From: Bispira polyomma | Lineage: Eukaryota | Direction: 5' to 3' | Length of the DNA stretch: 64,000 nt | Assembly: GCA_965649765.1 (NCBI GenBank) | Contig: OZ287753.1 | Location: 68,944,001 to 69,008,000 of the forward strand | In this document: positions 4,491-43,905 of the stretch, piece by piece | How the letters are laid out: the number at the start of each line of letters is the position of its first letter | Numbering within the stretch: position 1 is the stretch's first letter | Position numbers and translations under genes: made by a program | Notes under the pieces: generated by a model | What the model was told of the DNA's origin: nothing | What the model saw: only the letters and a program-made list of their open reading frames with translations | Databases searched by the model: none

Positions 4491-4758
4491 ATTATTTGTT
4501 AAAACCTTTTGAATATAATTCAATGAGAGTTTTTAGTAACAGAATGTATAAAATGCGTCATAGCTATGGTTTATAAACATTTTATAATAAATATGATTCA
4601 TGCTATAATTTGTAAAATCAAGTATAGTTGTCTATTTATAGAAATGATTGAGTCATGATAACTGAGTGTGTATATATATAGATATAGCTCAACTTTTATA
4701 AACTCATAAGGCATTTGTTGATGCTACCCTGCTAAAACCTTCTCACACTGAGAATGGA

Positions 4759-7700
4759 GTGTCCTTACTGTCAGAAGTTTTTAATGAGAAACAGAAATCT
4801 AAAGAGACACTTAAGGAGTGTGTACTATTAAGGGGGGTAAAGGAAATGGTATGCCCCCATTGTCAAGAGATTTTTACTGAATATAACAATTTGGGTAAAC
4901 ATTTAGAGAAATGTACTCCTCCAAGGTCGTCTCATCAAGACATTGTCAATTGTCCCTATTGTGACAGACACTATAATAACGTTGATCAAAAACAAGATCA
5001 TGAAAGAACATGTCTTAAATGTTATAGGTGTGGTACTTCTTTTAACACCCCACTCAAAAAAAGACTTCATCTAAAAGAGTGTAGAGTTGCTAGGTCTGAA
5101 TCGCAGATATACTGTGAAGACGAAACTGAGGTAAAGGTTACTAAAACAGATTCAAATGATAATTCTCTTCAAACAGAATTTGACAAAGTTTGGGATACTC
5201 ATAAATTACCAAAAAATGAGACGCATACTAAAAAGCTGATACATAAACAGTGTACTTCAAATCATGGTGATGATAGAACTTGTACTGAGAGTTATTCCTG
5301 TAAAAAATGTCATCATCAATTTGATTCTAGGTGGAATCTTTATATTCATACTATTACGACTCATAATCAAACAGGTGGTCAAAGTCATCTGCAAGATCCA
5401 GTCCTACCCCCAGATTACGAATTTGAAACTGTAAATATGTCAAATGCATACAAATCAAACCTTCAGCACATATTAGCTCAACATAACAGAGGTACATTAA
5501 AGACAACCTATAACTTTCCTACTGATGATTTATCGCGTGGAATGAGGGAAATATCAGAACATTTAAACGGAATATACAACGATCAAAATAATGCCTTTAA
5601 AATTAACCTATCTTTTGGTTTGATACTTAAAAATACTGAAAATGATGACTACCGTTATTATGTTCCATTTTATAACCAACAACTATTCCCCACTCCTTTT
5701 ACTATATCTCGCAGAGGTAATATCAGACATCTTTATCACAAAATAAGAGGACTAGATCTACCAGAATTTGTTAGACAGCTCAAACCCAATAGTAAATGGG
5801 TACCGGTTATGATTACTAATATTAATTATAACGTCATTCCAACGGCTTACTATTTAGGGTCTAATGCAATCATTCTTCCAGATTATATAAAAAATTCAAA
5901 ATCGATTATAGCATTAGATACTGATACAAAATCACTGCCATATGGAGATCATCTATGCGCTTTTAGAGCCTTAGCAATGCATAATAAGCTGAGCGGTATA
6001 AAGGACATGGCAACCAATTACTATTATAAATGGTGTGATTTTATAAACATACAAAAACATCATTTAGCATATCAAGGTCTTTTATTAGACCAGATACACC
6101 TTTTTGAGGAATGTTTTCATTTAAATGTTAACATTTATTCCCTTAAAGAAGACAATCTTGTGGTACCGGTTTATAAATCTATGTTGCGATATGATAAGGT
6201 TATGAATCTAAATATGTACCAAAACCATCTCAGCTATATCACAGATATTAGCAGATACAGTCGGAAGTATCAATGTACTCAATGTGACAAATTTTTTAAA
6301 ACAACTTCTACACTTAAGAGACATCTGGATAAGTGTTACAACAAAACGCGTTACGTATATCCAGGTGGTTTTTATCAGCCTAGTAAAACTATATTTGAAA
6401 AGCTCAGTGGTTATGACACCCAGGTTGAGACTGTTAGAAGGTTTTATCCCTATTTTGTAGTTTTTGATTTCGAATCTATGTTATTAAAGAGGGAGGGGGG
6501 AGAACCAACAAACACTAAATTGATTTACACTGTAGAGCATCACCCCATCAGCGTTTCTATATGTTCAAATGTAGATGGATACAAAGAAGCCAGCTGTTTT
6601 GTAGAGGCAGATGTGGACAAACTACTGAAAAGATAGAGACTTTAAAGGGAGGTATTTTAGGGGAGAGCTTTAATTCTAATCATATAGAGTTATTAGAAAA
6701 GGAATTTCTAAGGTATATTAGACAAATTCCTGTGTTGGGATTTAACAGTGGAAAATACGATTTAAATTTAATTAAATCCCAACTGGCGGGTCATTTATTT
6801 CAAAATAAAGACAGGGCAAATTTCACCGTTAAAAGAAACAACAATTACTTATCTCTCAGTACAAATAAGTTAAAATTTTTAGATATTAGTAACTATATTG
6901 CTGCGGGTGTCAGTTATTCAAAATTTCTCAAGTGTTATGGGGTAACAGAAACTAAAGGTTATTTTCCTTACGAATGGTTTGATTCTTTAGATAAGCTTAA
7001 TTATAGAACATTACCTCCTTATGATGCTTTTTATTCTACATTAAAGCAATGCAATGTTTTATCTGATAGGGACAATTATACTTTACTCCAGAATGTCTGG
7101 AAAGACAAAAACATGCAGACTTTTAAAGATTTTTTACAATGGTATAATAACCTAGATGTAGTCCCATTTTGTACCGCAATCACAAATCTGCAAGAATATT
7201 ATATTAATAAGGGAATTGATATTTTTAAAAATTACATATCAGTGCCGGGAATAGCTAGAAAAATGCTTTTTGATTCTACAGATTGCAAATTTTCACTTTT
7301 TGATGCTAAAAATAAGGATCTATACCTTACAATGAAAAATGGGATTGTAGGAGGTCCTTCCATTGTATTTCGACGTTACCACGAGGTAGATAAAACATTT
7401 GTGAGGGAAAATATAGATAAACCTGTTAAACTTATCGAAGGACGGGACGCGAATAGTTTGTATTTATGGTGTTTTGCCCAAAAATTGGGAACATGATTAT
7501 TTGTAAGAAGACACAAAGAAACTGGTTTCAAAGGAGAGGTTCCAGTGAAATATCTAGAACAATACATTTGGCTAGATTATGAGGCAGAAAAAAATAATAT
7601 TTATATACAACACGGTTTAAATAGTAGCAAAGAGTTTCGTATTGAACCTTATTAGTGGGGGGGATGAAGGCTGAACAAATTTTTTTAGCAACACCACTTT

Positions 7701-9089
7701 TAAAATGGTATTTAGATCATGGTATGAAAATTACTCAGATATATCAGGTTGTAGAATACGTAGCCAAAAATTGTTTTGATAATTTTACCTCCGAAATTTG
7801 TGATAGAAGGAGGCAGGGAGATATTAGTCCTGATAAAGCTATAATAGGAGAACTCTCTAAGCTACAAGGTAACTCAGCTTTTGGATCCTCAATTATGTCT
7901 AAAGAAAGACATTTAGACATTAAATATGTAAAGGGGGTGAGAGAGGCTACATTACTGGTTAATAATCCGTCTTTTAAAAATTTAACAGAATTGAAAAATG
8001 ACATGTATGAGGTCGAGAAATATAAAACCAAAATTACCTTAGATTTACCTATTCAAATAGGTTATTTTATTTTACAATATGCCAAATTAAAACTATTGTC
8101 TTTTTATTACGACTGTTTAGATCGATATGTAGACAGATGAGATTTTGAAATGATAGAAACGGATACAGACAGCGCCCTCAGTAAAAGATCCTTTGAGGAG
8201 AGTATCAGACCGTCCTTACGTTTGGAATATAGAAAAGATGTTTATGAATCTTGTAGAGATAATTTTACACCTAAGTGGTTTCCAAGACTTTGCTGTTCTA
8301 CCCACATAGCCTTTGACAAAAGAAGTCTAGCCTTGTTCAAGGTCGAATGCCTTGCCTCCAAGGCTATTTGTCTGTCTTCTAAAACCTACATAATGAGAGA
8401 GTTAAATGAAACGGATAAAATATCATGCAAAGGGATTTCTAAGAAAAGTCTTAATAATGCTATGAAATTATTTGAAAGCGTACTAAATAGTCAAAAGCCA
8501 CAACCATCTACAAATATGGGATTCAGAGCAAGATGCAATACAATTTACACATACACTCAGGAAAAATTAGGTTTCTCATATTACTATATTAAAAGACAGA
8601 TGTTAGAAGACGGTATACAAACTAAAGCTTTAAACATAATATCAAAACCTTGGCCAGACGATATTGTTATAGTGAAAAGCGACCTTGACCTATTAGCTAA
8701 TGGTTATTTATTTGATATTAGTATAGAGGGTAATAAATATTTGAATATAAACAAATATTTTGATGAATATAAAAAAAAACATTATTTATCCTCTATATCA
8801 ACTAGCTCTAGCAATCTTAAAGACTGGAAGTGGTTTAAACAAAGAGATAACATTATGTATACAATACTACTTTATAAAATACAACAGTGTCCTCGTTTTG
8901 CAGATGCACTGCATAAAACAAAAAAAAACTTATATATGCTATAATGTAACAGATAATTTATATTGGAATGTCGAATTAAGTAATAATCTGATGAGGGTTA
9001 TAAATAGGGACTCATATCCAGGTCAAAATCAAATGGGAGAGTTATTAATGAAACTTAGAGATACAGTTTTAATGACCGCGTCACTATGA
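4759..9089 (+). pseudogene. polB: Protein-primed family B DNA polymerase of Polinton (Zn fingers, terminal-protein region, OTU-like domain, exonuclease, polymerase, C-terminal NADAR-like domain); broken into 5 ORFs
   Basis: ExoI FDFES, ExoII GFNSGKYD, KGYFPYE, ExoIII YNNLDV, motif A DANSLY, motif B KLQGNSAFG, motif C ETDTDS; stops at 7494 and 8138, frameshifts near 6630, 7650, 8925. Confidence 0.92.
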
Positions 9090-9718
9090 GTATCAAATTT
9101 GAAGATCCTGCCAGTATACTTATGTCTGGGTGTAGTAATTCGGGCAAGACCACATTTCTATACAAACTCTTAGCCAATAAGAGAGATATGTTTGTGAGAC
9201 CGCCTAAAAAAATATTATATTGCTACTCTGTCTGGCAACCTATTTTCGATTCTCTTCAAAATAAAATTGACATCGGCTTTATTAAAGGACTGCCTGATCA
9301 GAGTGTAATTGATTCTATGAATGATGGAAATCATAATATTTGTATAATAGATGACCTTCAAGAAGAGGTTTCTGGTAATAAATTTATAGAAAAACTATAT
9401 ACCACATTATGTCATCATTATCACCTCACAGTCATTACTATTTTACAAAATTTATTTTATCAGGGTAAAACCTTAAGAACTATTAACCTAAATAGTCATT
9501 ATTTAATTTTATTTAAAAATCCGCGTGACATCAATCAAATAAAGTATTTAGGACAGCAAACAGGTTTCAAAAAAACTTTGGAAGAAGCATATAAAGACGC
9601 CACGGATGAGTGTTATAATTATCTGTTATTAGACTTATCTCCGCATTCCAGTACACAATACAAATTAAGAACCCACATATTACCTAGTGAAGACATAGTA
9701 GTATATTTAGCCAGGTAG
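9086..9718 (+). CDS. A32/FtsK-like genome packaging ATPase
   Basis: Walker A GCSNSGKT, Walker B IIDD, LQN, RTINLNSHYLILFKNPRD typical of Polinton ATPases. Confidence 0.93.
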   Translation: MSIKFEDPASILMSGCSNSGKTTFLYKLLANKRDMFVRPPKKILYCYSVWQPIFDSLQNKIDIGFIKGLPDQSVIDSMNDGNHNICIIDDLQEEVSGNKFIEKLYTTLCHHYHLTVITILQNLFYQGKTLRTINLNSHYLILFKNPRDINQIKYLGQQTGFKKTLEEAYKDATDECYNYLLLDLSPHSSTQYKLRTHILPSEDIVVYLAR

Positions 9719-10497: not shown

Positions 10498-10578
10498 TAT
10501 ATAAGTCTGAACAAATTTAATATATTCTTGACTGTTGAACTTAAACTGATTGTATTTTAAAGTCTCAGCCGCATAATA

Positions 10579-11710
10579 ATGGAAAAAATTAAGACAGATT
10601 ATTTACACGACCTATATTACAATCCTAAAAATCCAACCTCATTCATCGGTTTCAATAAATTCTACACTTTTGTAAAAAATGATAATAAATATCCTTCTAC
10701 TAAGAAAGATATAAGAGAATGGATGGGTAAACAAGACGCCCTTATATTGCACCGTCCAGTTATAAGAAAATTTAAGAGACCTGTTACCATAGCTGTCAAA
10801 AAGGATCAACAGTGGAATTCAGACACAGCCAATATGGTTAAATTTAAAAAATACAATAAGGGCTATCAACATTTTTGTGTGGTGATAGATAGTTTAACCA
10901 GATATCTGTGGACCTTTCCAATACATAATCTCACAGGATTAGAAATGAAGGAGGGATTTAAAAAATTACTAGGAACCCACAAACCCCATTTTTTATTTTC
11001 TGATAATGGCAGTGAGTACAAAAGCAAAATATTTCGTAATTATGTTAAGGAACAAGGTGTGCAACATTTCATGAGTACTAATGAGACTAAGGTAGCTTTG
11101 GCTGAGAGAGTAATAAAAAACATTAAATTAAGGTTGATAAGGCGAATGACAGGACAAAATAATTTTATATGGTATGATGGGTTATCTAGCCTGACTGAGG
11201 CGTATAATAGTTCTTATCACAGAATTATTAAAACAACACCGTCAAATGCTAGAAATATGGATGACTACGATTTGTGGACAAATCAGTATAGTATTGGATA
11301 TAATGCAAAGAAGAAAAAGTATAAAAAAAAACAAGACTGCACCCTCTCCACAAAAATTACCATATAAATATAGGGTGGGAGATGTGGTAGAGGTAGCCTA
11401 TTTATCTAGACCGTTTGAAAGAGAATACGACAAAAAGTATTCAGGAGAAAATTTAATCATTGCTGACAGACATATAAATCAGGGTAAAGCACAATATAAA
11501 GTTAAAGATCTCAATAATAAGCTGATCGGTGGTAATTTTTTTAACAACGAATTGCAAAAGGTATATATAGATAGCGAAACTACATATCGAATAGAAAAAA
11601 TACTTAAAAGTCGAAGTAGAGGGGGAAAAAAGGATTTTTTGGTGAGGTGGGAAAATTATTCTCCAAAGTTTGATAGTTGGGTGACTGAAGAAGATATTAA
11701 AGATATATAA
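10579..11710 (+). pseudogene. Retroviral-like (c-)integrase with C-terminal chromodomain, frameshifted in an A-run near 11325
   Basis: YYNPKNP, QWNSD, FSDNGSEY, AERVIK, YNSSYH; chromodomain YRIEKIL...FLVRWENYSPKFDSWV. Confidence 0.92.
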
Positions 11711-12419: not shown

Positions 12420-12536
12420 GACGACTAAAAGTATATATATATAGAGAGAGTTAGTAAGTAAACAGTTTAATCGTCAGTTGGTATCCGGATTGTAGTTGAC
12501 TAAAACTTAAGTATAAGGAAAAACATAAATAGCAAG

Positions 12537-13838
12537 ATGAATGTCTTTCAAGAAAAGGTGGCTCTGTTCCAAAAGCCGTTAATAGACCCCTCCATACATC
12601 ATATTGACTGGGTAGAATACAGACCTTCTGGCCAAATTAAAAGCGGAAATGTAATTGAGATTAATATAACTGGTGATGGAGCAGATTATATAGATTTAGA
12701 AAGAAGCAGATTGCATATAACAATGAAAGTTGTAAATAAGGACGGAACTAATCTAGCAGCTACAGCTAAGGTGGCTCCGGTAAATTTAGCCCTGCATTCC
12801 CTCTTCAGACAGGTGGATTTGTCTCTACAGCAAGTCAACATTTCACCCGGTGTGGGAATTAACTATCCTTATAAAAGTATAATAGATATTTGGTTACATA
12901 ATAGTTTTGTGGGCGAACAGGGACAGTTAGAAAATGAACTATTTGCTAATGATACCGCTAGTTATCACGATGATACAACTGGTGATGGTAATACAGGTTT
13001 TGGTGGGAGACAAGATAGATGTGCTCTGAGTACTGTGGTGGATTTATACGGCCCTTTACATCTTGATTTAGCCGAGCAGGAAAGACTTATATTAAATGGT
13101 GTGCAAATAAATGTAAAATTATATCCCAGTACTGATACTTTTAGATTAATGTCGGGTGATAATGCCCAAGAATATAAGGTAGAGATGGTTAATGCTGCTT
13201 TACAAGTATGTCAGGTAAAATTAAATCCTGAACTAGTTTTAGCCCATGCCAAGGCGTTAAAATTAGGCCCTGCATTATACCCTTATTGGCAAAGTGATTT
13301 TAAAACGTTCACCATACCTAAAGGAAATATGATGTGGAGTGATGATGGAACTTTTCATGGAGAGGTGCCAAGCAAACTAATTGTAGGTTTTGTCCCTGGA
13401 GAAGGTTATAGCGGTAGTTATACAAAAAAACCCTTTAAATTTCATCACTACAGTTTAAATTACTTAGAATTTAGCGTAGATGGGTTACCTGTTCCATGTC
13501 GCCCATTTAGACCTAATTATGTAGAGGGTTCTATCAGTGCAAGACCCACCTTTACAACTGGACATTATGTGGAAACGTATAATAGTCTATTTTATGGTAA
13601 ATATGGTGAAAATGAAAACAATCTGATTAAATATACCGATTATCCTAACGGGTGTTGTCTGTACGTATTCAATATAGATAGTAATGTGAGCGGACCGCTA
13701 AAGTCAGAACGTAAAAAGGGACATACAAGGATAACGGTTAATTTTGGAAAGGCTTTAGCCGAAAGTGTTACAGCTATATTATATGGTCGTTTTCCTGCTA
13801 TGATAAGTATTGATGAGTCTAGAGCGATAGATCAATGA
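12537..13838 (+). CDS. Major capsid protein (hexon-like, double jelly roll)
   Basis: 433 aa intact; WVEYRP, YIDLERSRL, LHSLFRQVDL, NYPYKS, GPLHLDL..QERLILNGV, PFKFHHY motifs of Polinton major capsids. Confidence 0.9.
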   Translation: MNVFQEKVALFQKPLIDPSIHHIDWVEYRPSGQIKSGNVIEINITGDGADYIDLERSRLHITMKVVNKDGTNLAATAKVAPVNLALHSLFRQVDLSLQQVNISPGVGINYPYKSIIDIWLHNSFVGEQGQLENELFANDTASYHDDTTGDGNTGFGGRQDRCALSTVVDLYGPLHLDLAEQERLILNGVQINVKLYPSTDTFRLMSGDNAQEYKVEMVNAALQVCQVKLNPELVLAHAKALKLGPALYPYWQSDFKTFTIPKGNMMWSDDGTFHGEVPSKLIVGFVPGEGYSGSYTKKPFKFHHYSLNYLEFSVDGLPVPCRPFRPNYVEGSISARPTFTTGHYVETYNSLFYGKYGENENNLIKYTDYPNGCCLYVFNIDSNVSGPLKSERKKGHTRITVNFGKALAESVTAILYGRFPAMISIDESRAIDQ

Positions 13839-14280: not shown

Positions 14281-14695
14281 TATGACTGTGTCCAAGGGAT
14301 AGATGGCATCTAGCAGTTTTCTTTGTGCTAGATGGGTTTCACTCTGATATAGAAATGATGTCATTTAGTCTAGGTTAAAATTGTTGACAAATAGTTTTCT
14401 TTGTGTAATGGAGGGTTAGTCTGGTCTCAAAATGATGTCATTTAGTCTAAAGTATATTTGATGACGAGGTTTTATAGTGGTGATGTAAATGGTCTAAAGA
14501 GACAAAGGGTTCTAATATTTACATAATGTAAATGTTAATCTATGACATAATTTAAAGGGGGTTTCATCTTATGAGTCAGTGATTGATGATGCAATTGAGG
14601 TGTTGTCATAGTGAAATTATGAATAATAAAAGGTTAGGTAATGAGTTATAATTAGATTTCTAGGGGGGAAAAAGGGTATATATTAGGGGGAGAGA

Positions 14696-15427
14696 ATGAG
14701 TGAGAGATTAATTTCAACTGAAAGATTAAAGATGGCTACTACTACTACTACAAATGCCAGAGGGGTAGGACAAGTAAGAGGAGAAGATGAAGCTGATTGT
14801 GTGGTGGCAGCATCGGCATCAAGTTTTAGAAGGAGGGCGGACAAAAAGCAAAAAATGGAGAAACTTACAAATAAGTTCACAAATTTCCAGTTAGAGGAAG
14901 AATCCTTATGTATGTGTCGAGATTGGTTAGACTACAAACTCTACTATAATAGGCTGGAAAGTTTCAGGGGCTGGCCCAGAGGGGTTGGTATCACACCTAA
15001 AGAACTAGCCAGAGGAGGATTCAGGTACAGCGGGTATGGAGACAACTGCGTCTGTCCTTGGTGTAACATGCAGGTCAAGAATTGGAACTATTTCGATGAA
15101 CCTCTGAGACTGCATGCCAAACAAAACCCCAGTTGTGAGTATGTACAAACGGTGTCTCCTACTACAAATAAATTTATAGAAAGAGGAAACTACAAGTTGT
15201 ATCAAAACCGACTGGAGAACTTCAGAGGGTGGAAAGTTGGCGATATAGTTAGACCTGAGCAATTAGCTAGAGCAGGCTTCATGTATACAGGGTTAGGCGA
15301 CAGATGTCAGTGTTTGTGGTGTTCCGTCATATTACATTCTTGGCATTATCTAGACGAACCCCTGACTGAACACAAGAACAATTCCAAAAACTGTGGGTAC
15401 TTAAAAATGATTCTGCATGATGAATAA
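14696..15427 (+). CDS. Inhibitor of apoptosis protein with two BIR domains, no RING
   Basis: Two R..(S/N)F..W ... LAR.GF.Y.G..D.C.C..C ... H......C repeats with all Zn ligands; intronless; TATA-like tatatatta at ~14677. Confidence 0.92.
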   Translation: MSERLISTERLKMATTTTTNARGVGQVRGEDEADCVVAASASSFRRRADKKQKMEKLTNKFTNFQLEEESLCMCRDWLDYKLYYNRLESFRGWPRGVGITPKELARGGFRYSGYGDNCVCPWCNMQVKNWNYFDEPLRLHAKQNPSCEYVQTVSPTTNKFIERGNYKLYQNRLENFRGWKVGDIVRPEQLARAGFMYTGLGDRCQCLWCSVILHSWHYLDEPLTEHKNNSKNCGYLKMILHDE

Positions 15428-17209: not shown

Positions 17210-18183
17210 TTGATGTACTTTTTAAGTACCCCTTTGCAAAAACTCCTACTAAGATCAGCTTCCACCAGGCTTGAAAATGCCTTAACTGAAAGAACCCAGC
17301 AAGTATATGGAAATTGCATTAAATTGTTTCTGGCATTTGCTGTGTTCTTGGGAGTGGAAAAAAAGTTTATGTTACAATTTTTAGAGTATCAAGCTCAGCA
17401 GGGGTTAAACCCCCTTATAATACAGAACTACGTGTTAGCCATAAAGCACCATTTTTAATTGTGGTCTGTTCCAGTGGGGGTGCTGTCTCATCCCCAGATA
17501 ACATTATTTTTCAGATCTTTATCCATGTCAACTCCCTATTCTCCCAGGTTAAAGGGACTTATCACCTTACCCATTTTGACTGCCATAATCCTGCAGAAAA
17601 TTCAATTCCACATTCTTATGTGTATCAGACGTTATTCCTAACGACCTTTCATTGGGATTTTCCGCTTGTCAAACTTGGTGCCTTCTAGCATTGGTCAATT
17701 TAATCCTGAACGGCACTTAACTTGTCAAGATTTTGTATAGGGATCTCCTGGAGTTCATGTCGTTTTGCATTGGGCAAAAAATTTACAAAAATACAATTAA
17801 TATCACGTGGTTCAATTGCCTGCCCTTAGAAATCCTCTTTTGTGCCCAGTAACAGCACTAAGGCTAATGTTTGCCAAAAATAGGAACACCCAGGAATCCT
17901 CAGTGTTTATGTGTAAAGTAAATGACAAACTGGTACCCCTTACTGCCTATAAAGTAAGGCGAGTGTTAAGAGAAATCATCGTGTCTTTGTCTCTTAATCC
18001 ACAGTCTTTTAGTTTTCACTCTTTCAGACGATCTGGGGCGACCTTGGCATTCGACAATCACGAATTACAGGCCATTATGGCCATAGGGGTTGGCGTTCTT
18101 CATCAGTATGGGTGTACCTGCAGTCCACCCCTAACGCTTCAGCCTTTGTCGCCCGTTCCCTACAAAGTATCATACCTAAATAG
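17210..18183 (+). pseudogene. Tyrosine recombinase of YR retrotransposon
   Basis: SAM-like N-terminus, FRLSNLVP in a shifted frame, LCPVTAL, FSFHSFRRSGAT, GWRSSSVWVY (catalytic Tyr), stop at 18181-18183. Confidence 0.88.
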
Positions 18184-19924
18184 GGTATATACTATACCTC
18201 GGAATAGAGCTGGAATCGAAATGGAATCGGAATGCCGCCCTGTACTGCCGCCCTGTACTGCCGCCCTGGTCATATAAGCTTGGTACTTGTATGTAAGTTT
18301 AAATATCTCAGCCATTTCTTAACGGATTTTGATGCAACAAAAAGCATAGGAATTACAATAAAATAAGCTTTCTTATCTTATTTTATTGCAAATTTTATCT
18401 TAACTAATTTCTGAGTTTTAAATAAATAATCACCATTTTGAGTGCAAAACCCACCAAAAATGACTGAAGGTTGCAATGGCAGTTGGAATGTACAGGAAAA
18501 TAGGTTGTAATGGGGATTGGAAAGGAGATATACCTCTCTACAAGGAGGCAGGTTGGACTGAAGGTTGGAATAGGAGTTGTAATGGGGATATACTTTTCTA
18601 CAGGGCGGAAGGTTGGAATGAGGGTTGGAATAGGAGTTGTAATGGAGATATGCTTCTCTCCAGGGCGGCAGGTTGGAATGGGAGTAGGAATGAGAGTTGT
18701 AATGAAGATATACTTCTCTCCAGGGCGGCAGGTTGAAATGAGGGTTGGAATGAGAGTTGGAATGGGGATAAACCTCTTTATAGGGGGGGGGGCAGACTGG
18801 ACTAAAGGTTGGAATGAGAGTTGGAATAGAGATATACTTCTCTTCAGGGAGGCAGACTGGACTGAAAGTTGGAATGGGAGTTGTAATGGAAATGTACTTC
18901 TGTCCAGGGCATTGTTAAATTCACAGGGCGGCAGGTATGGGAGTTGGAATGGAGCTAGGCTTCTCTACAGGGCGGTAGGTTAGAATGGGAGTTGGAATGA
19001 GAGTTGGAATGGGGATAATCTTCTTTATAGGGAGGCAGACTGGACTGAAGGTTGAAATGGAAGTTGTAATGGAAATGTACTTCTCTCGAGGGCGGCAGGT
19101 TGGAATGGGAGTAGGAATGAGAGTTGTAATGGAGAAATACTTCTCTCCAGGGCGGCAGGTTGGAATGGGAGTAGGAATGAGAGTTGGAATAGAGATATAC
19201 TTATCTACAGGGAGGCAGACTGGACTGAAGGTTGGAATGGGAGTTGGAATGGAAATGTACTTCTCTACAGGGCGGCAGGTTGGAATGGGAGTTGGAATGA
19301 GAGTTGTAATGGAGATATACTTCTCTCCAGGGCGGCAGGGTGAAATGGGAGTAGGAATGGGAGTTGGAATGGAGATATACTTCTCTACAGGGAGGCAGGT
19401 TGAAATGGGTGTTGAAATGAGAGTTGGAATAGAGATATACTTCTCTCCAGGGCGGCAGGTTGGAAGGAGGGTTGGAATGAGAGTTGTAATGGAGATATAC
19501 TTCTCTACAGGGCGGCAGGTTGGAATGGGGGTTGGAATGAGAGTTGGAATGGAGATATACTTCTCTACAGGGAGGCAGACTGTACTGAAGGTGGAAATGG
19601 AAGTTGGAATAGAGCTATGCCTCTTTAGAGGGTGGCAGGTTGGACTGGAGGTTAAAACTGGAGGAATTTTAAATATACAATCCAAATTTAACTATATCCT
19701 CATCAGCATTTTATTTGAATTATAATTAGTAAAACCTATCACAAGGTACATTATAAGAGCTTTCTAGTAATACCAAAATGAAATTTTTGGACGAAATATT
19801 TCGATAGATACATCCATTTATACAATTTTTTTTTTCATGTTGCACCTTAATCAAGTTGCCGCCCTGCCGCCCTGTTCCAGGGCGGCTGGAATAGGGCGGC
19901 AATTCCGAGGTATAGTATGTACCC
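18183..19924. mobile_element. Non-autonomous TIR element containing a satellite array
   Basis: 23-bp TIR gggta(t/c)atactatacctcggaat at both ends; ctaaata duplicated at 18176-18182 and 19925-19931. Confidence 0.85.
18476..19650. repeat. 60-bp tandem array with 12-bp sub-period
   Basis: Unit cagggcggcaggttggaatgggagttggaatgagagttgtaatggagatatacttctcta visible in register line after line. Confidence 0.93.
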
Positions 19925-24616: not shown

Positions 24617-27600
24617 ATGCTACGTCTTGTAGTAGGTTATACTGTGGGTATATACTTGTCTGTACTACTTACTGTGGTAAGTGGGTACTGCTACAATACA
24701 GACACAAACCCATATAGGTTTTATACCACTGAGACCAGATATGATACAGTACTGGACACGAAGGCCAGCACACACTTGAATACTTCACATATAGAAGGTG
24801 AGATAGTTGTTTATGTACTATAAAGTTATGAACTAAGATGTGTCGGTTTTAGTCTAATATTGTTTTTATTCTGAAAAGGGGTGCCACCATCTTAAAAATA
24901 ATAAGTATAAGGCCTTCATGGACTGGGTGGGAGCAATTGACTTGGCCAAACTTAGGGTGTGAGATTAATATTTGCAGGGGTGCTGAGCGTGATGGAGTGT
25001 AAAACTTTTGAGTTGTATGTGCAGGCATTCCGTTGTTAAATCGGTAAGGTGCCTGCTGGTGCTATTTCTTCTGTTTCATAACAATCATGGAAATGAGTGA
25101 CAAGGTAGAATTTTGACATATTCATATCCCATACTAGAATGTAGTAACCATATCAACGTTAGTATATTTTACACTGTGCACCGATATCTATTTTGTAAAA
25201 TACAACTCTTGTTTTAGTATAAAACTGTGGCACTCCTTAATCATCAGTACTTTAACACCCCCAGACCTACTTGGTAGGCATGCACTAGCCTAGATAATTC
25301 CTTAACAACCAGCTACTGGTTTCATGAACAAGTAAATCCTTGCTGCCAAACGCCTCAAGCGTAAAATGGAACACACCTGGCATCAAACCAATACAATCAT
25401 ATGCTGGAATTTTTCAAACATAGCCATTACACTAAGCTTGTTTCTACAAATCACGACAATCCAAAGAACCCAAAAAAATACTCCACAAATCCTCTACGGC
25501 TGTACTACCTATTGGGTCCAGTCCTATTTATAACGTAGAAAGTAAAAAAATCAAAATTGGTCATAAATTCTCATAAGCTCTCGCATTCCCTCATGGTGTT
25601 CCACCAGGTTCTGTATTTAGCCATCTTCTCTTTTCCATGTACACCACTCACCTCAGTAAAATATTCTCTCAGATTAACGTCACTCATCACCTGTATGATG
25701 ACGACACACAAATATATTTAGCATTAGATACAATAAACTTGGGCTCTAGCATATCAGAGTTGGCAAAATGACTTGAGGCTGTGCAAATATGGATGGAAAG
25801 TGTCAAGCTTAAACTCAATCCAGACAAAACTGAATTTATTACTATAGGTGACAATGCTACTTGAGACAGTTTTCAAACCATTCAGGTTCCTTGACTACAT
25901 TATGTCACCATCAAGTAAGGTAAATAACCTTGGTGTTATATTTGACCAAGACAACTCACAGAGTAGTCATGTAGCCATTGTCTGCCAGGCCTGCTACTAC
26001 CATTTACGGGATCTGTACTGAATACGCAGGTATCTCAGTCTTTTTATTCCCCCGTTTAAAAATTTATACACACCAGAACGCAACATAAAGAGTAAAGGGG
26101 TTGGGAAACCTCGCTCTGTGGTGTTGACAATTTGTAGCATCTCGCAGGATGCGTTTTTAGATATGAAACCAAAAGAAAGACATAGAACAACCATTCATAT
26201 GTATGTAAAAAAAACTTAAGAAGTCTCTATTTATCCTGTTCACAAAAGATAGATTTACTACTTGGAGAAAAACAATTTTTTGGAAAATATTTTAGTGATT
26301 GATGAAGTTAATTATTATATTTGAATAGTAAATTCATTTGTTAAATTGTTGTAAAGCTGTTAAAACTGTACATTGTACCTTATAGTGCAGATATATAAAA
26401 TCCTGGGTAATATGTTTTGACACTGAAAAACAACAAAAAGCCTCTTGATGAAATTAAGCTACTTGGAAACACAAATACCAGTAATGTGTTAGCAGGAAGA
26501 CGTCATTAGTATAGTGGTTAAACACTGGCGCCCCATCTCTACAGTGGGGGTTCCGTTCTCAGTCCCGAGATGTATGTGAGAAAGTTGGCAGGGCACTTGC
26601 TGAAGGCTGGTGCTTTAAATTAAAGTGCAGAAAACTATTACTAACTACCCAGCTATACTGTGCAATGACTAAGTCTGGTGAGTATTTGAGTATTTACATT
26701 TGTTAATACAGGCAAGTAATATTCAAAAATCATAAACTAATACAATAGATCCTCCATTATCTGAAGTTTTCTTATCTGAATATTCAATTTTAGGAACAAA
26801 ATTTTTATGTAGCAAGATGAATGTGTTGCTATTGTGTTATTCTACAATACATGTTCAATTTTATGCACCTTCTCTTATCCAAATATAGCTATTCACTCTT
26901 CCAAGGTATTTGGATAATAGGGGCTGTACTGTGTTGCCGTTGAAATGTACACAACCTGTATATATCCATGTGTAAAGTTTACACTGAATGACCTGTCCAC
27001 TGTAATAATGTATGTGATTAAGTGATGAATCATTTCTCCTACATTTAGGCTGTGAACCCTCTGTCTTCTACCTGCTGGCACGTCATGGCTCAAGATATGC
27101 CAATCCAGACACAATAGCAACTATGGCAGAAACACTACCGAAGTTCCAAGATATCATCACATCATCAGGTCAGTATATTTATCATTATATAGTGGTACCA
27201 TACCGGTTCACTCTCAGGACCAGTTCACCGATCAAAATAGTCAATATTTGTTTGTATGTTTATTTATTTTCAACACTGATGTTAGCAGTTTATACATGGC
27301 AATATACTTATTATTTCACCTTAAAATTGGGTGTGCTGGCTTTATTGGTAAACTACTAATTTTTAAAATCTTTTTACATTGTGGGCGTGAGCTGGCCCCA
27401 GGTGGGAACTGGCACAATATTAGTACTTGTTATAATATTAATACACAAATACGTTGAATGAGTTGCGAGCGTTGTATGCAACCAGTTATGATACTACTGG
27501 TGTTAAGGTTGTTCGCTACAATTTTTTTTCTCAAAAAAAAAATTTCAATATATTTTTATGAAAATTGCAGAAAATGTGCTTTATTCAATTGTCTGTGGGG

Positions 27601-36490: not shown

Positions 36491-37510
36491 AATAAAATTC
36501 CATAATACTTTTCTGTAGTTGAATTATTCTTTTGAATTCTATCTTTTGTTGGCCTCGATTTATCTTTTAAATTTGGGTGAATCAAACAAACTATCATTGG
36601 CTCATGACATGATAACTTGGGTTGGGGGAGGGTGGGGGGGGGGGTTGTGGAAGATGAGTCATAATGGCCCCACCTATTGTTAGAGATAGGAGGATAAGTT
36701 TGAATGTAGAATGGTGAATTTTTGAATGATTTTGGTCCTGGAAGAGGCAGACTGAAAAGATAAGTTGTTGTATGGTAACGATAACTCGGGAGAACGTTAC
36801 GAATGGTCCCGATTGACCATGACCAATTAGCACCCACTCACAGAGGTTAACATGTTAAAAACCCATAATCGCAATGGTTGGGAGCTATGATCGGCATAGT
36901 GGAACAGAGGTATAAGTGATCACAAAGCGAATTTCAGTAAATTTCACTCCTTTTTAATGTAATATTTACGTGTCTTCATATTATTTTTCTGTTACATTGA
37001 AGGATTTTCTATTTGATTTGCTGTCATGGTACTGTTCCCACTTTAATTAACACAAGAGCAAAAACAGAACATATTGGACAATAAAAACACACTTGCGAAT
37101 ATGGAGAATACTGGTCGCGCAAAATAGAATTTGAACGGGTTCTCAAGTAACTACGCACAAGCGCAATACATACCCCTTACAACGTGAAAAGATTTACAAA
37201 GAGAATATGATGACAGGTTGAAGGTAGGTATGTCATAATGCAAATTTGCCCAAAGGAGGGTGGGGGCTTAGGAAAATTTGTTAGACACACTTTCCTATTA
37301 GTTGTTAAAACTAAAAACATTCACTGTGGCCAAAACGAAACCAAAACTGATCACTATAGCTGTGTTGTAGTGTTTGTATTTCAAGCCAGATGTTAATTGT
37401 TTAGAAGATCCAGTAAACATGTTGCAATTCGGAATATTTATTTCATAATTTATTATACTTAATATCTTTTATCTGATAAGATTTTCCATATTGTTCATCA
37501 GGTTCCATCA

Positions 37511-38436
37511 TTACTGTTGTTCAGCTGGCTGCCTCTTTAATATGCTGTGTTCAAAAGGCTGTTCAGCTGGCTGTCTCTTCAGTATGCTGTGCTCAAATGG
37601 TTGTTCAGCTGGCTGTTCAGCTGGCTGCCTCTTTAATATGCGGTGTTCAAATGGTTGTTCAGCAGGTTGTTCAGCTGGCTGCCTCTTCAGTATGCGGTGT
37701 TCAAATGGCTGTTCAGCTGGCTGCCTCTTTAATATGCGATGTTCAAATGGCTGTTCAGCAGGTTGTTCAGCTGGCTGCCCCTTCAATATGCTGTGTTCAA
37801 ATGGTTGTGCAGCTGGCTGCCTTTTCAATATGCGGTGTTCAAATGGCTGTTCAGCAGGTTGTTCAGCTGGTTGCCTCTTCAATATGCGGTGTTCAAATGG
37901 CTGTTCAGCTGGTTGTTCAGCTGGTTGCCTCTTCAATATGCGGTGTTCAAATGGCTGTTCAGCAGGTTGTTCAGCTGGCTGCCTCTTCAATATGCTGTGT
38001 TCAAATGGTTGTTCAGCTGGCTGCCTCTTCAGTATGCTGTGTTCAAATGGCTGTTCAGCAGGTTGTTCAGCTGGCTGCCTCTTCAATATGCGGTGTTCAA
38101 ATGGCTGTTCAGCTGGTTGTTCAGCTGGCTGCCTCTTCAGTATGCGGTGTTCAAATGGTTGTTCAGCTAGTTGTTTAGCTGGCTGCCTCTTCAGTATGTT
38201 GTGCTCAAATGGCTGTTCAGCAGGTTGTTCAGCTGGTTGCCTCTTTAATATGCGGTGTTCAAATGGCTGCTCAGCTGGTTGTTCAGCTGGCTGCCTCTTT
38301 AATATGCGGTGTTCAAATGGCTGTTCAGCAGGTTGTTCAGCTGGTTGCCTCTTCAATATGCTGTGTTCAAATGGCTGTTCAGCTGGCTGGTCAGCTGGCT
38401 GCCTCTTTAATATGCGGTGTCCTGTCAGTCTCTTTC
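37511..38436 (-). CDS. Putative repetitive exon: 17 units of KR-QPAEQP(AEQP)FEH(R/S)IL (54/42-bp tandem array)
   Basis: Open frame, acceptor ttatctAG at 38437, unit variation mostly synonymous in this frame; gene context unresolved. Confidence 0.45.
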
Positions 38437-41400
38437 CTAGATAATGTAAAGGTAAATGTGACCATAAAATGTGTCACTTGTGTGTTGTTGTACATAACCA
38501 AACTTGTATGAGGTAATTGCTTTTTATAGATTTATTTATTTAATTAATATGTAAGAATAATAATAACAACAATTAAGATTGAGCAATAATATTTGTGTAG
38601 TAAACCTCATAGGGTGTAAATACATCACATTCAACAGTGTAAATTTAAAATTGTATGCCAACAAAATTATAACTCTCTCTTTCAAAGAATAATGAAGACA
38701 TATTAAAGCTTCTACACTGCATACAACAATATTGGTGGTTCCCTTAGCTCTTCATCTAGGCACTGTAATTGGAATGAAATTGGTGGGAACCCTAGTTGGT
38801 ACTGCTATGGAAGGGGTTGCAAGTTTTTAGTATCGACGACAGAAAGCAACATCTTTGATGATATTACAATGTGTATTTAAGACTGATAATTTGAAAGCTG
38901 TGCTAGAGAGATACTTCAACCATCTGTTATGTTGATAAATACACATATAATGCAATTTTAGACCACACATATGAATTTAATGCATTTTTACAAAAATGAT
39001 TTCTCAGCAATTACCTTTGGTCTGACTTCTGGCAGGACCCGAAACTGTCAGGATAACAACCAACAATATATGTACCGTCAATAGTTTCATGGCTGAAAAT
39101 ACATATATATTTGGCTAAACTCTAGAATTCCCCTAACTTGCCATCTATTTCAAAAGTCGTACCAAATACTGTCAACCTGTATACATATATATTTTTTATC
39201 CAGTTCTTTTTTTTCGTTTACCTGTCGGCCTGACAACCTATATATGTATACTTTATAGTTCACAACATTTCAACCTGTCGATCTATATATGAAGAAAATG
39301 TATAGAGAAACTATATTTGTCAAATATCTATAATACATGAATTCCTACACAGAAGTATATTCCTACACAGAAGTATACACAGGTAGGGGAATAACAGAAT
39401 CGTTCCAAGTATTTTTTCTACAGTAGCCACAAATTGCAATAGCCCAAAATTGGAATATTTCGAGGAAAATAAGATAATATGTCAGAGCAAACGGCTAATG
39501 CTAATACACAGATAGTGGTTAGTGTGGTGGTAAATTCATAGAACACAATTAACTCAATTAAGAAGTGGGTGGGGGGGGGGGGGGGTGATTTTAGATAGCG
39601 AAGTTCTCAGTATTAAATGTCATAACTGGCAATCTTCGACTGATCTACAGGATCGCTAAAAGTGTTCAAAAATACAGCCAGCTTCGGTTGCCTTTGGTGA
39701 TACTCTCTTCAGAGATGTAAAACCATTAAAATGAATTGAACTGAAACAAGCTTTACAGGAGGAGTGGAGAAAGTTAACCCAAGAACCTCACAGGGCCCTG
39801 TAAATCAAAACCTTTGTTAAAATGCCAACTAACGAAGGTGCAACGACCAAAGTACGAGAAGATAACTGAACAACTGTGGGTAAATAGAAAGCGTTGGTTA
39901 GATTTTCGTCAGTTCAGCCCAAACGAAGGTCTAACTAATGTGATTCTCAGACATCATATGATGTGGTTACAATATAAATGTAGTAGTTATGTTCCATCTA
40001 ACATACACTAAGCTTTTAGATGTCCTATACATTGGTATTGATCCAAAAAGTGTAACATTAACAATCACTAATGAGTATTTAATGTTTATAACCCAGCAAT
40101 ATACACAAACCAGAATGTACTCATGTACATCAACAAATGCTATGACAGATATCATGACAAAGGTGTATGAGTGCATTGGCCATATAAACACACGTGAACC
40201 AGTGTTAACTTTATTGCTTTTTTTACAGGCTGTTTTACCATATAAAGTCAAAGGTAGTGCAGAATTGGAAAATATTTTCTGGCTTTTTACAATTGTTTTA
40301 TTGATTTATTGGTGATTATAATGTCTAACTGATACCTAATGACAGGGTCTGAGTTGTCGTTCAATTTAGGGGGTTTCACGAACAAAGTTAACTAACAGAG
40401 GGTTTCCAATGAGCCATAACTTTCTCAACTAAGGCTTAACCAATATGTAACGAGTTAGTGGAACAAGAGCTTTGATTTACAGGTCCCAGATCTGTACACA
40501 ATACTGAACGAATTAACTGTAGTCAAATGTCTGATAATTAAATTAAAATGCAGTGCCTGCAAGAATATTGTGTTAATGTGATCCTTTCTTGGGATTAGTC
40601 CAGCAAAGACGAGAGGCAGCGCTGTGGTTTTAAACGAGTGTGCACCCGGAGTGGATTGGAAACTGTGTAAACTGGGGATGGTGGGCAAAAAACAACATAT
40701 GATCAAGCTTTGATAATCACTGCCTCACATTTATAGTAGATAAATTTGCAAAAAGATCAGGTTTTGCTTATCTTGTCAACCAAAAATTATCCAAATTGAT
40801 CTGCTAAAAATGTGAGGCAGTGATTATTAGGCATTCCTATAATTCATGCAGCTTATTGAATTTCATTGAAAACGTAAATGTATAAATGACGCTCATAAAT
40901 ATTAAACATAAATTTAAAATTTATAAAATTGCACTTCATTTGCTTTTGTGTCTAGTGATCAAACAAAATAAAGTGATCAGTAATACAGAATAAGTCAATT
41001 TTACTAGAGTCAACTAACACAAAAATATGCCTTTCATTTAAAACAAATGCAACACAATCACCTACAAGTCTGATTAGATTTAATTAATTATCTATTTTCT
41101 GTGAAAAACATTAATAATATAATCCACCTAAAATATATATAAATACATGTTATTCAATATTTTGGCCTATGTTCAATAAAGACCTTCCATCACCTTACCT
41201 GTAGCTTTTAGAACTTGCTTTTTGCTTGCTCAGATGAGGAATCTGATTGCCATGTTTTGGTGTGCGTTTATTTATGTATAAATATTACATGCAATTTGCC
41301 AACACATTATACCTGTGTAAAAATATGAAACCGTCATTTGATGACCAACAGTTTTAGCACCTGCGCCCTATTATGATGACTGCAATTAGAGAAGAACAGT

Positions 41401-41439: not shown

Positions 41440-43905
41440 TTTTTTTTATTTTCAATTTACTTCAGACACTTGGTCCATATTACAAAAATTGCAAAACATT
41501 ACAGGAACATGGTCAACACCCATTTGTACATATATGCCACTCATACTGACACCAGAGCCTCGTCGTATACACATAAAATTTCTAAAAACATTATTGAAAG
41601 CAACAGTCACTATGTTAATAACGGAATTTGGATAGTTCATCCACAACTGAGAAGTATAAAAATTACATATATAGGATTTAAACAGATGGACCTTCACTTC
41701 ACTCGAACACATTTTGAACCTATTTATCAGCATATTTCCCTGAGTATATATAGAGCGGATTTGTCTTTTGATGTCATCTGTATCACTAAGATTATGTGCT
41801 AATATATGGCCAAGATATTTATAGACAGTAACGAAGCTTAGGGCACGGTCACCCAGAAATAGATTTGGGTACACAGTATGTCTATGTTGTAGTACCCTAA
41901 CTATCATTCCTACAGTTTTAGTCTGATTAAACCAAATATCATGAGCATCTCCATATTGCTTACATATATATTTACTAACTTTTGTAATCCTTTTTATATA
42001 TGGGCAGATGAGAGCTATGTCATCAGCATACATTATGTGATTTGTTGAATGATTACTGATAAAGCAGCCAGCATGGCAATTGTTTTTGTAACTTTTCAAT
42101 AATATATGATATGTGTGCTACTGGGGTACCCCGTTTTTGTAACTTTCCAAATAACTTGTCATATCTTATTCTATCAAAAGCTTTAGAAGCATCCATGAAA
42201 CAAGCAAAGACTGAAAAGTTGTGTGTATTGTAAAAACATACAAGTTCCTTTAACACAACTATAGCCATTTCAGTACTATGATTGGGTTAAAAGCCAAACT
42301 GATTATCAGTAGTTTTAATATAGTTTAACATCATATTACATAAAATATTTTCAAAAACTTTTGATGCACATGTTGAGAGACTTACAGGTCTGTGGTTTGA
42401 CTTGTCATATATATTTCCACACTTGTTTTGAATTACTGGTACAATAACCGAATTCATCATTTTGTTTGGCATATATCCATGACTAAGCATTGCAGAGAAC
42501 AATATAGAGAAAGTTACACTAATGTATGGATCTGCATATTTAAGATGTTCTGCCATGATGTTATCAATGCCGGAACTCTTGCTATTTGGGAGCGACACAA
42601 TTGCTTTAGACACATCCACAGAGCTAACAATCATGCTATCCTCATAGCTCACACTACCATAGACAGTCTCTTGTTCAGAAGGAACACTTATTAAAGAGCA
42701 ACTCAAAGTGACCCTTCCAAATATTTGTAACATTTTCAATACAACTGGTATGATTGATACTGTATGGTAATAATACTTAATTATTGTTGGTGCGGCGAAT
42801 TTCTCTCGAAAAATCCTTATAGTAATTGTTGCTTAGAGTGTTTGCTATCTTGTTTGCTTTAATCCTGTCCACATGTTTTCAACACAAGCACAGAGCATAT
42901 TTGAGGCTGGCCAGTGTTCATCTCATTAGTTCTGCAATTGGACCATTTTTGGGCTTGTTGAAGTTCATCCAGAGGAAGAAAGCATCACGAGCAGCCAGAT
43001 GGGCTTCCTTGACAAGATTGTGCCAGCCAGGAGTTTGTTAAATCATACATTTGCGGAAACCTTTTGCTGTTTTATTGACAGATAATTTTTCAGATTCTAG
43101 TAAATTTTCAATAATGTTGTCATGCAAAGACTCTATATGCTGTCTATAATAGTTAGATTGGCAGTTTGGATCATAACACACAAATGTAGCCCCTGCAATG
43201 TTAATCTTACGTAGAAGATCACCAGATGCTCTGTGGTACAAGGATAGCTGGTCATTTGAAATATTACTCCACTTTAATTTGTCGCCTTTTTTCAAAAAAG
43301 GTGTCCTTTATATTGTTTGGAAGAAAGTCTAGATCTAATTTAAGGCACATAGGTTTATGATCCGAGGATATGTACTTTTAATGAATCTTAATATCAACAA
43401 TTGAGGAATGAGCATATTTTGAAGAAAAAAAGTGATAGATCCAGGAGGTGGTATACCAAGCATCACTAACAAAGATGAAAGAATTATTAGACAATAGTAG
43501 GTTGTCAGAAATACATAAGTCAAGGTCATTTATATATTCTTCTATGATATTGCCAAAAGAATTATTCTCCCTTGAATCACCATTAAAATCACCCATGATT
43601 ATCACATTTGTGTATGAGCTATCAGAGATAATAGAGTTCAGTTTTGCCATATGACATGTATATTTATCAATATTGTCACGACTATAATATGGTAAATACA
43701 CACCAATAAGTAAAATCTTTTGGTCACATGAGTTTACTTCTAGGCCACAAGCCCAATCAAGGGCATAATCAAGGGCTTTTTTCAAATATAACCCACTCCT
43801 CCATATTTGCGGCCACTATTTATTCCATCAACAGCTTTGACAGGAGAAACACCAAAACCTGTAGAATTCTCATCAAAAGTGTTTAGAGTACCAAGTTCAG
43901 TATTT
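41440..43905 (-). mobile_element. 5'-truncated non-LTR retrotransposon (APE + RT, L2-group-like), pseudogenised, with A-rich tail
   Basis: GRKYGGVG, IGVYLP, MGDFN, SWIYHF; NHRPVSL, NQFGF, DASKAFD, MYADD, KYLGH, LFKSY..YTSQLW. Confidence 0.88.

Follow-up and report, generated by a model that had tools for sequence, protein, structure and literature searches.

The Polinton element and its polymerase gene

The DNA analysed here, referred to as the window, is a stretch of 64,000 nucleotides of Bispira polyomma, taken from a host assembly of 1.04 Gb. A polymerase gene was located on the forward strand at 4702..8632 from its open reading frames, from C2H2 fingers found in a Pfam scan, and from motifs of a sister frame. 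What we take to be the exonuclease and the polymerase A, B and C motifs were placed in this sister frame, which is naturally open and 1669 codons long. The family profile of the polymerase also contained a weak VSR-like insert (E 0.007), and the thumb region matched viral PolB models in a Foldseek search (E 0.009).

The polymerase ends with the peptide KRQMLEDGIQTKAL (8591-8632) and is followed, on the same strand, by a stop-free linker that ends in Pro-Trp (8633..8653) and by a domain of the NADAR/YbiA fold with a remodelled pocket (8654..9089), which was recognised by Pfam, by a structural model and by Foldseek. A sequence-only reading had proposed that the polymerase is fused to a NADAR-like domain, and the peptides it quoted were all present. 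In the frame 8141-8944 no stop separates the polymerase end from the NADAR-like segment, the remainder of the domain, DNLYW...PGQNQMGELLMKLRD, was found in the frame 8751-9089, and the frameshift, as had been proposed, falls inside a run of A at 8920-8928.

Upstream, too, the polymerase gene of the window copy was broken: the alignment to a sister copy had gaps near 6630 and 7650, and a stop codon interrupts the frame at 8138-8140. With two gaps, a stop and a frameshift, the window copy is a dead insertion. The sister-copy alignment had overlaps of 9-10 bases at both gaps (6626-6634 and 7644-7653), which suggests deletion between short repeats. The frameshift may be real at the locus or a slip of the assembly. 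Programmed frameshifting was rejected, since 17 of 48 loci are open and the shift of the broken copies falls in one or the other of two A-runs; public-run contigs spanning the break, which seem to come from sister copies, also lack the shift seen in the window.

Four further genes lie downstream on the same strand. The ATG of a packaging-ATPase-like gene (9086..9718) overlaps the polymerase stop codon (ATGA, 9086-9089); its P-loop and Pox_A32 matches were weak and all below cut-off, and the packaging role is presumed from the usual Polinton gene order. A retrovirus-type integrase with a chromodomain occupies two frames (10561..11710; Pfam rve E 6e-9, Chromo E 1e-10). The likely major capsid protein, of the double jelly-roll type (12504..13838), had no Pfam match and was assigned from an Atlas feature that scored 0.98 to clusters in which 22-30% of the members have PF21738, a recognition below the threshold of the tool. 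An IAP (inhibitor-of-apoptosis) gene with two BIR domains (14687..15427; Pfam BIR E 4e-36) belongs to the element, as it is common to the sister copies, and IAP homologs are among the adintovirus genes described in PMC8502044.

The element thus combines a protein-primed PolB with an rve integrase, the pair by which Polintons and adintoviruses are recognised, and the absence of a PF03175 match suggests that it is of the Beta type. Homology to the sister copies extends from base 1 to approximately 16,300 of the window, so that the left end of the element lies outside it; no long inverted pair (terminal repeats) was found in the first 30,000 bases. Further features were seen at 17801-18277, 18378-19725, 27018-27359, 37449-38473 and 41452-42832. 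From their motifs we take these to be a tyrosine-recombinase-like fragment, minisatellites, a histidine-phosphatase-like exon and LINE fragments; the three that were scanned with Pfam gave no match.

Fold of the C-terminal domain

When read through the frameshift with an X at the break, the domain matched Pfam NADAR (PF08719) with 46.6 bits (E 5.7e-12), above the curated cut-off of 35.1 bits, while its two halves taken separately fell below the cut-off (E 0.0068 and 0.0026). Three natural open sister frames scored 45.1, 39.8 and 45.8 bits, all above the cut-off. A natural copy was modelled with a pLDDT of 89.7, with the deletion in place, from a 74-row alignment that included intact NADARs; the model from eight family rows alone was poor (pLDDT 43.7). 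The predicted fold is a helical core with small flanking sheets, as in the solved NADARs.

The only two PDB matches of the model at E<=0.001 in Foldseek were the YbiA-type NADARs of Phytophthora nicotianae (8bau) and E. coli (2b3w). VIA-align superimposed 8bau with a Z of 13.9 and an rmsd of 3.2 over 140 residues, and 2b3w with a Z of 11.9 and an rmsd of 3.3 over 128 residues; the next row after both NADARs had a Z of 2.6. A PDB search with a single sequence had missed the NADARs.

Residues of the ligand pocket

The residues of the domain were mapped onto 8bau by profile alignment. The account of that structure in PMC11543638 assigns E43 and E125 to the distal ribose, K50, R79, W89, R93, W133 and D130 to the pyrophosphate, and G78, V81, Y84 and D86 to the adenine. 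The same source describes that D171A and D171N, at the position of E125, and K95A, the equivalent of K50, abolish efficient hydrolysis. In a Streptomyces YbiA-type NADAR, E167D and E167Q are described as abolishing activity, so that even the exchange of Glu for Asp is fatal (PMC12945103). An active hydrolase was expected to have in its last strand a Glu, as in YbiA, an Asp, as in DarG1, or a His, as in phages.

In the window copy, the first helix (8750..8773, forward strand, as are the following segments) has Asn at the position of E43 (8750-8752) and retains Lys at K50 (8771-8773). The lid that follows (8774..8830), equivalent to the 8bau segment in which K75, G78, R79, V81, Y84 and D86 contact the adenine, is shortened; this adenine-binding segment has 16 residues in the window family versus 31 in other NADARs. 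Two phosphate contacts are retained as Trp and Arg at W89 and R93 (8831..8845). The last strand and loop (8940..8969) have Tyr at E125 (8940-8942), Asn at D130 and Trp at W133, and the Gly that follows W133 is replaced by Asn in the window copy. The substitutions that had been flagged from the sequence are real, and most are common to the family.

All four subfamily representatives have Tyr at the last-strand catalytic position. None combines E43 with K50: subfamily A has only the Lys, subfamily B only the Glu, and subfamily C has His and no Lys at E+7, as read by eye from a four-row alignment. Each representative thus retains at most one of the three catalytic residues. The positions of W89, R93 and W133 are kept in the window family, and D130 in subfamily C only. 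Of the 67 database fusions, 3 had the full trio of the E43/K50/E125 type, two of them with Glu (P0003, P0007) and one with His (P0038), versus 29 of 29 LINE NADARs of the host, many of which are close copies. The E125 column was gapped in 16 of the 67 fusions, and when the whole end of the strand was considered, Glu was present in five.

Compared with 8bau and 2b3w, then, the Polinton domain shares the fold, the W89, R93 and W133 positions and the terminal Gly-x-Asn-x-x-Gly helix cap, but has Tyr at E125, lacks E43 or K50, has an adenine segment of half the length and is fused to a DNA polymerase. It has the NADAR fold but, to judge from these residues, not the makings of an active NADAR hydrolase, and the domain of the window copy is probably no enzyme. 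A basic DNA-binding surface was considered and found unsupported, because there is no increase in net charge (median +2 in the fusions and +3 in the window family, versus 0 to +2.5 in free NADARs).

Distribution and origin of the fusion

Among 48 sister loci, 17 hold the polymerase end and the NADAR end in one stop-free frame (two of the open pairs being near-duplicates), 22 hold both ends but are broken, and nine are without one or both of the search motifs. The open frames across the junction measured 1669, 1659, 1256 and 511 codons. The proposed fusion with a NADAR fold was thus borne out, in that neither a failure to recover the fold nor a stop between polymerase and domain common to the sister copies was encountered. 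The polymerase parts of the three window-family subfamilies were 64-76% identical, and the NADAR domain 42-50% identical between the deep subfamilies. The same host contains a second, larger group of Polintons, with seven subfamilies at 49-66% identity, in which the fusion was in one frame at 28 of the 30 loci fetched.

Beyond this genome, a HMMER search with a profile that joined the polymerase tail to NADAR gave 1198 cluster representatives at E<=0.001. Of the best 150 of these, 67 cover both the junction and the complete domain, approximately 14 have shrunken tails and approximately 19 end without the domain; the last two classes were picked by eye and some of the domain-less polymerases are perhaps truncated. 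The linker Pro is retained in 93% and the Trp in 60% of the 67 fusions. Of the NADAR fold, the shrunken tails, 110-135 residues long, retain only the first strands together with the last loop and helix; the core plus the last loop and helix survive across the fusions, these tails included. Shrunken-tail polymerases include P0045, P0069, P0074, P0078, P0083-P0086, P0088, P0108, P0121, P0145 and P0149, and the two scanned with Pfam, P0083 and P0149, gave no match. Word-index homology searches returned almost nothing (one polymerase without the domain), a low sensitivity that HMMER exposed, and no relative was found in the viral contigs searched. The spread of the profile matches, together with the second Polinton group of the host, indicates that the fusion is old and widespread.

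The trees do not settle whether the fusion had a single origin or what its donor was. The fusions grouped together across a branch of low support (SH-aLRT 78), and a tree joining the window family to the host LINE NADARs was not rejected (p-AU 0.62) and scored 9.2 log units above the quick free search; these trees left out subfamily C and rows with fewer than 90 filled columns. In the polymerase tree, forms with and without the domain interleave, mostly on weak branches.

A tandem array of approximately 100 units of about 1.15 kb was also observed inside a subfamily-B Polinton (G000:C5:44.91-45.03 Mb), each unit consisting of most of the NADAR part and the DNA after it.

Selection on the domain

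The pooled dN/dS between subgroups was 0.42 for the domain (95% interval 0.25-0.74) and 0.16 for the polymerase (0.11-0.23), a 2.6-fold difference; the intervals of single comparisons and of half-domains reach or pass 1. Private variants, meant as a neutral control, gave 0.35-0.78 instead of 1 and were a poor control. Of the last 46 residues of the domain, 27 are invariant over the three subfamilies, and the codons differ at 13 of 24 degenerate sites, so that the constraint acts on the protein and not only on the DNA that precedes the next gene. The substitution pattern indicates that the NADAR domain is under moderate purifying selection.

Other NADARs and ADP-ribosyltransferases of the host

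A host search for a pierisin-type transferase with PF22596 gave no match, but the control was blank too; no guanine ADP-ribosyltransferase was found among the 16 window frames scanned with Pfam. The host has 44 PARP-domain matches.

Intact-looking NADARs were found genome-wide at the end of L1-type LINE ORF1 proteins (at least 150 matches; 2147 first-look candidates). NADARs, most of them with an intact trio, also occur in a second class of LINEs, presumably Tx1-like, whose ORF1 has a zinc knuckle. A Penelope-like element (a reverse-transcriptase-like frame with GIY-YIG; G000:C11:57.20-57.25 Mb), with copies about 9 kb apart, has an upstream frame of 938 codons with a NADAR (66.6 bits) and, by eye, a hydrolase-like tail; such frames lie at L105:2897-5713 and L108:2299-3909. 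Two other long open frames contain two NADAR domains each (L106:2129-4063 and L104:1525-5673). The presence of NADARs in two LINE classes and a Penelope-like element keeps alive the idea of a pressure exerted by the host.

Function of the domain

The replacement of the essential glutamate together with the shortened adenine-binding segment points to a non-catalytic accessory. The explanation that we favour, and to which we give about an even chance, is that the domain derives from a captured NADAR and would be packed behind the thumb, where it would help to hold the enzyme together or on DNA. An ancestral Polinton would have captured an active NADAR that countered base ADP-ribosylation. Most descendants would then have lost the chemistry and kept the fold by means of the short Pro-Trp linker, and some would have shrunk the domain further or lost it. 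The intact fusions show that an enzyme form exists, and the scattered loss of pocket residues, with the linker, last loop and helix kept, fits a structural job, as do the purifying selection and the confident model. Several observations count against an accessory: the net charge gives no support for the gripping of DNA, the dN/dS is 2.6-fold that of the polymerase, with half-domain intervals that reach 1.0 and a neutral control below 1, three phosphate contacts are retained, and the good fold model drew on intact NADARs. The domain is also dispensable, as related polymerases end without it. A prediction of the complex between the domain and two pieces of the polymerase, made without alignments, scored 0.00 and was counted neither way.

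The domain might instead be a reader that has given up cutting but still recognises ADP-ribose or a similar nucleotide, or else ADP-ribosylated DNA. The Tyr would stack on this ligand, and the domain would thereby detect or shield lesions at the fork. We consider this unlikely. The W89, R93 and W133 positions are kept, as is K50 in subfamily A, 27 of 67 database fusions and 25 of 28 second-group loci have an aromatic residue (Tyr or Phe) in the column of E125, and the fusions retain on average 3.6 of the six ADP contacts. All six, however, are present in only two of the 67, the adenine-binding segment of the window family is halved, and the second host group has E43 in 28 of 28 loci but K50, R93, E125 and W133 in none. 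As the window family and the second group have lost different pocket residues, no common ligand pocket survives. The reader proposed from the sequence is therefore weakened.

A doubtful alternative is that the domain is the relic of a once useful enzyme, a slowly eroding tail that folds only enough to spare the polymerase. Its higher dN/dS (0.42 versus 0.16), its lower identity between the deep subfamilies relative to the polymerase, and the graded series from full to lid-less, shrunken and absent domains are what erosion would produce. Yet the domain has stayed in frame over dozens of lineages that are less than 50% identical, though a stop codon would remove it, and its C-terminal loop and helix are strongly conserved at the protein level. 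The earlier caveat of a binding-only or decayed domain thus came closer to the facts, except that purifying selection disfavours plain decay.

Very improbable is an active eraser, or an N-glycosidase with changed chemistry, that travels with the replicase: phage NADARs are described as stripping ADP-ribose from viral DNA as a counter-defence (PMC11825919), P0003 and P0007 have intact catalytic residues and the intact NADARs of host retroelements suggest that a pressure exists, but the whole family has Tyr at the essential position, with no more than one catalytic residue of three per subfamily representative, Glu to Asp alone kills a YbiA-type NADAR (PMC12945103), the host search, which had no working control, found no pierisin-type transferase, and the guanine-N1 mark of human PARP15 is, according to bioRxiv 10.64898/2026.03.31.715305, not removed by NADAR. 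The replicase-borne eraser of the sequence-only reading accordingly found no support in the window family, though the intact fusions P0003 and P0007 leave it standing in a few distant relatives. The non-catalytic accessory remains the reading that we prefer for the window family.

Relation to known systems

The element shares with Beta-type adintoviruses and Polintons, as described in PMC8502044 and PMC11161782, the PolB motifs, the VSR-like insert, an ATPase-like gene, the rve integrase with chromodomain, a capsid-like gene and the IAP, and differs in the added C-terminal NADAR. An extra domain on a Polinton-type polymerase is also described for the helicase-pPolB fusions of Tlr1 and Oxyrrhis elements (PMC12721341, PMC11161782), but there the partner is a helicase or nuclease and not a NADAR fold.

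The orphan AdfN NADARs of phages that act against DarTG1 are likewise encoded by a virus and are the model for the counter-defence idea; as portrayed in PMC11825919, AdfN is a separate active enzyme directed against a known transferase, whereas the Polinton domain is fused and lacks the essential catalytic residue. NADARs on the replication machinery of genomic parasites are described in oyster Tx1 LINE ORF1 and Ectocarpus Gypsy Pol (PMC12477816), and NADARs fused to the replicase polyproteins of RNA viruses in PMC9503650. By hypothesis these act on RNA intermediates, whereas the Polinton domain sits on a DNA polymerase, and the host LINE NADARs, unlike the domain of the window family, keep the catalytic trio.

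No report of a NADAR in a Polinton, Maverick or adintovirus was found in the literature searched; supplements and de Souza and Aravind 2012, which lie outside it, may bear on the novelty. The main texts of PMC11161782, PMC8502044, PMC12721341, bioRxiv 10.64898/2026.10.13.758929 and 10.1101/2024.03.25.586562 do not mention NADAR. The accessible part of PMC9503650 lists phages, giant viruses and RNA viruses as carriers and no Polintons, which are likewise unmentioned in the accessible part of PMC12477816, and the roles of animal NADARs are called unclear in PMC11125620.

The NADAR is thus a domain apparently not reported before for the DNA polymerases of a large Polinton group. The group offers a natural series that begins with the intact enzyme, passes through several forms disarmed independently of one another and ends with shrunken domains and their loss; this series can be assayed directly. 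That one genome has NADARs both on a DNA element's polymerase and on several classes of retroelement points to a pressure of base ADP-ribosylation on mobile elements. A bolder proposal, which we regard as improbable, is that animals of this kind attack mobile DNA and RNA by ADP-ribosylation of the bases and that Polintons answer with a NADAR welded to the DNA polymerase. It would be an active, fork-coupled eraser in some lineages (P0003, P0007) and would act in most of the rest as reader or decoy, and the NADARs of the LINE and Penelope-like elements in this host would be further cases. If true, this would amount to an undescribed anti-transposon defence of animals together with its counter-measure.
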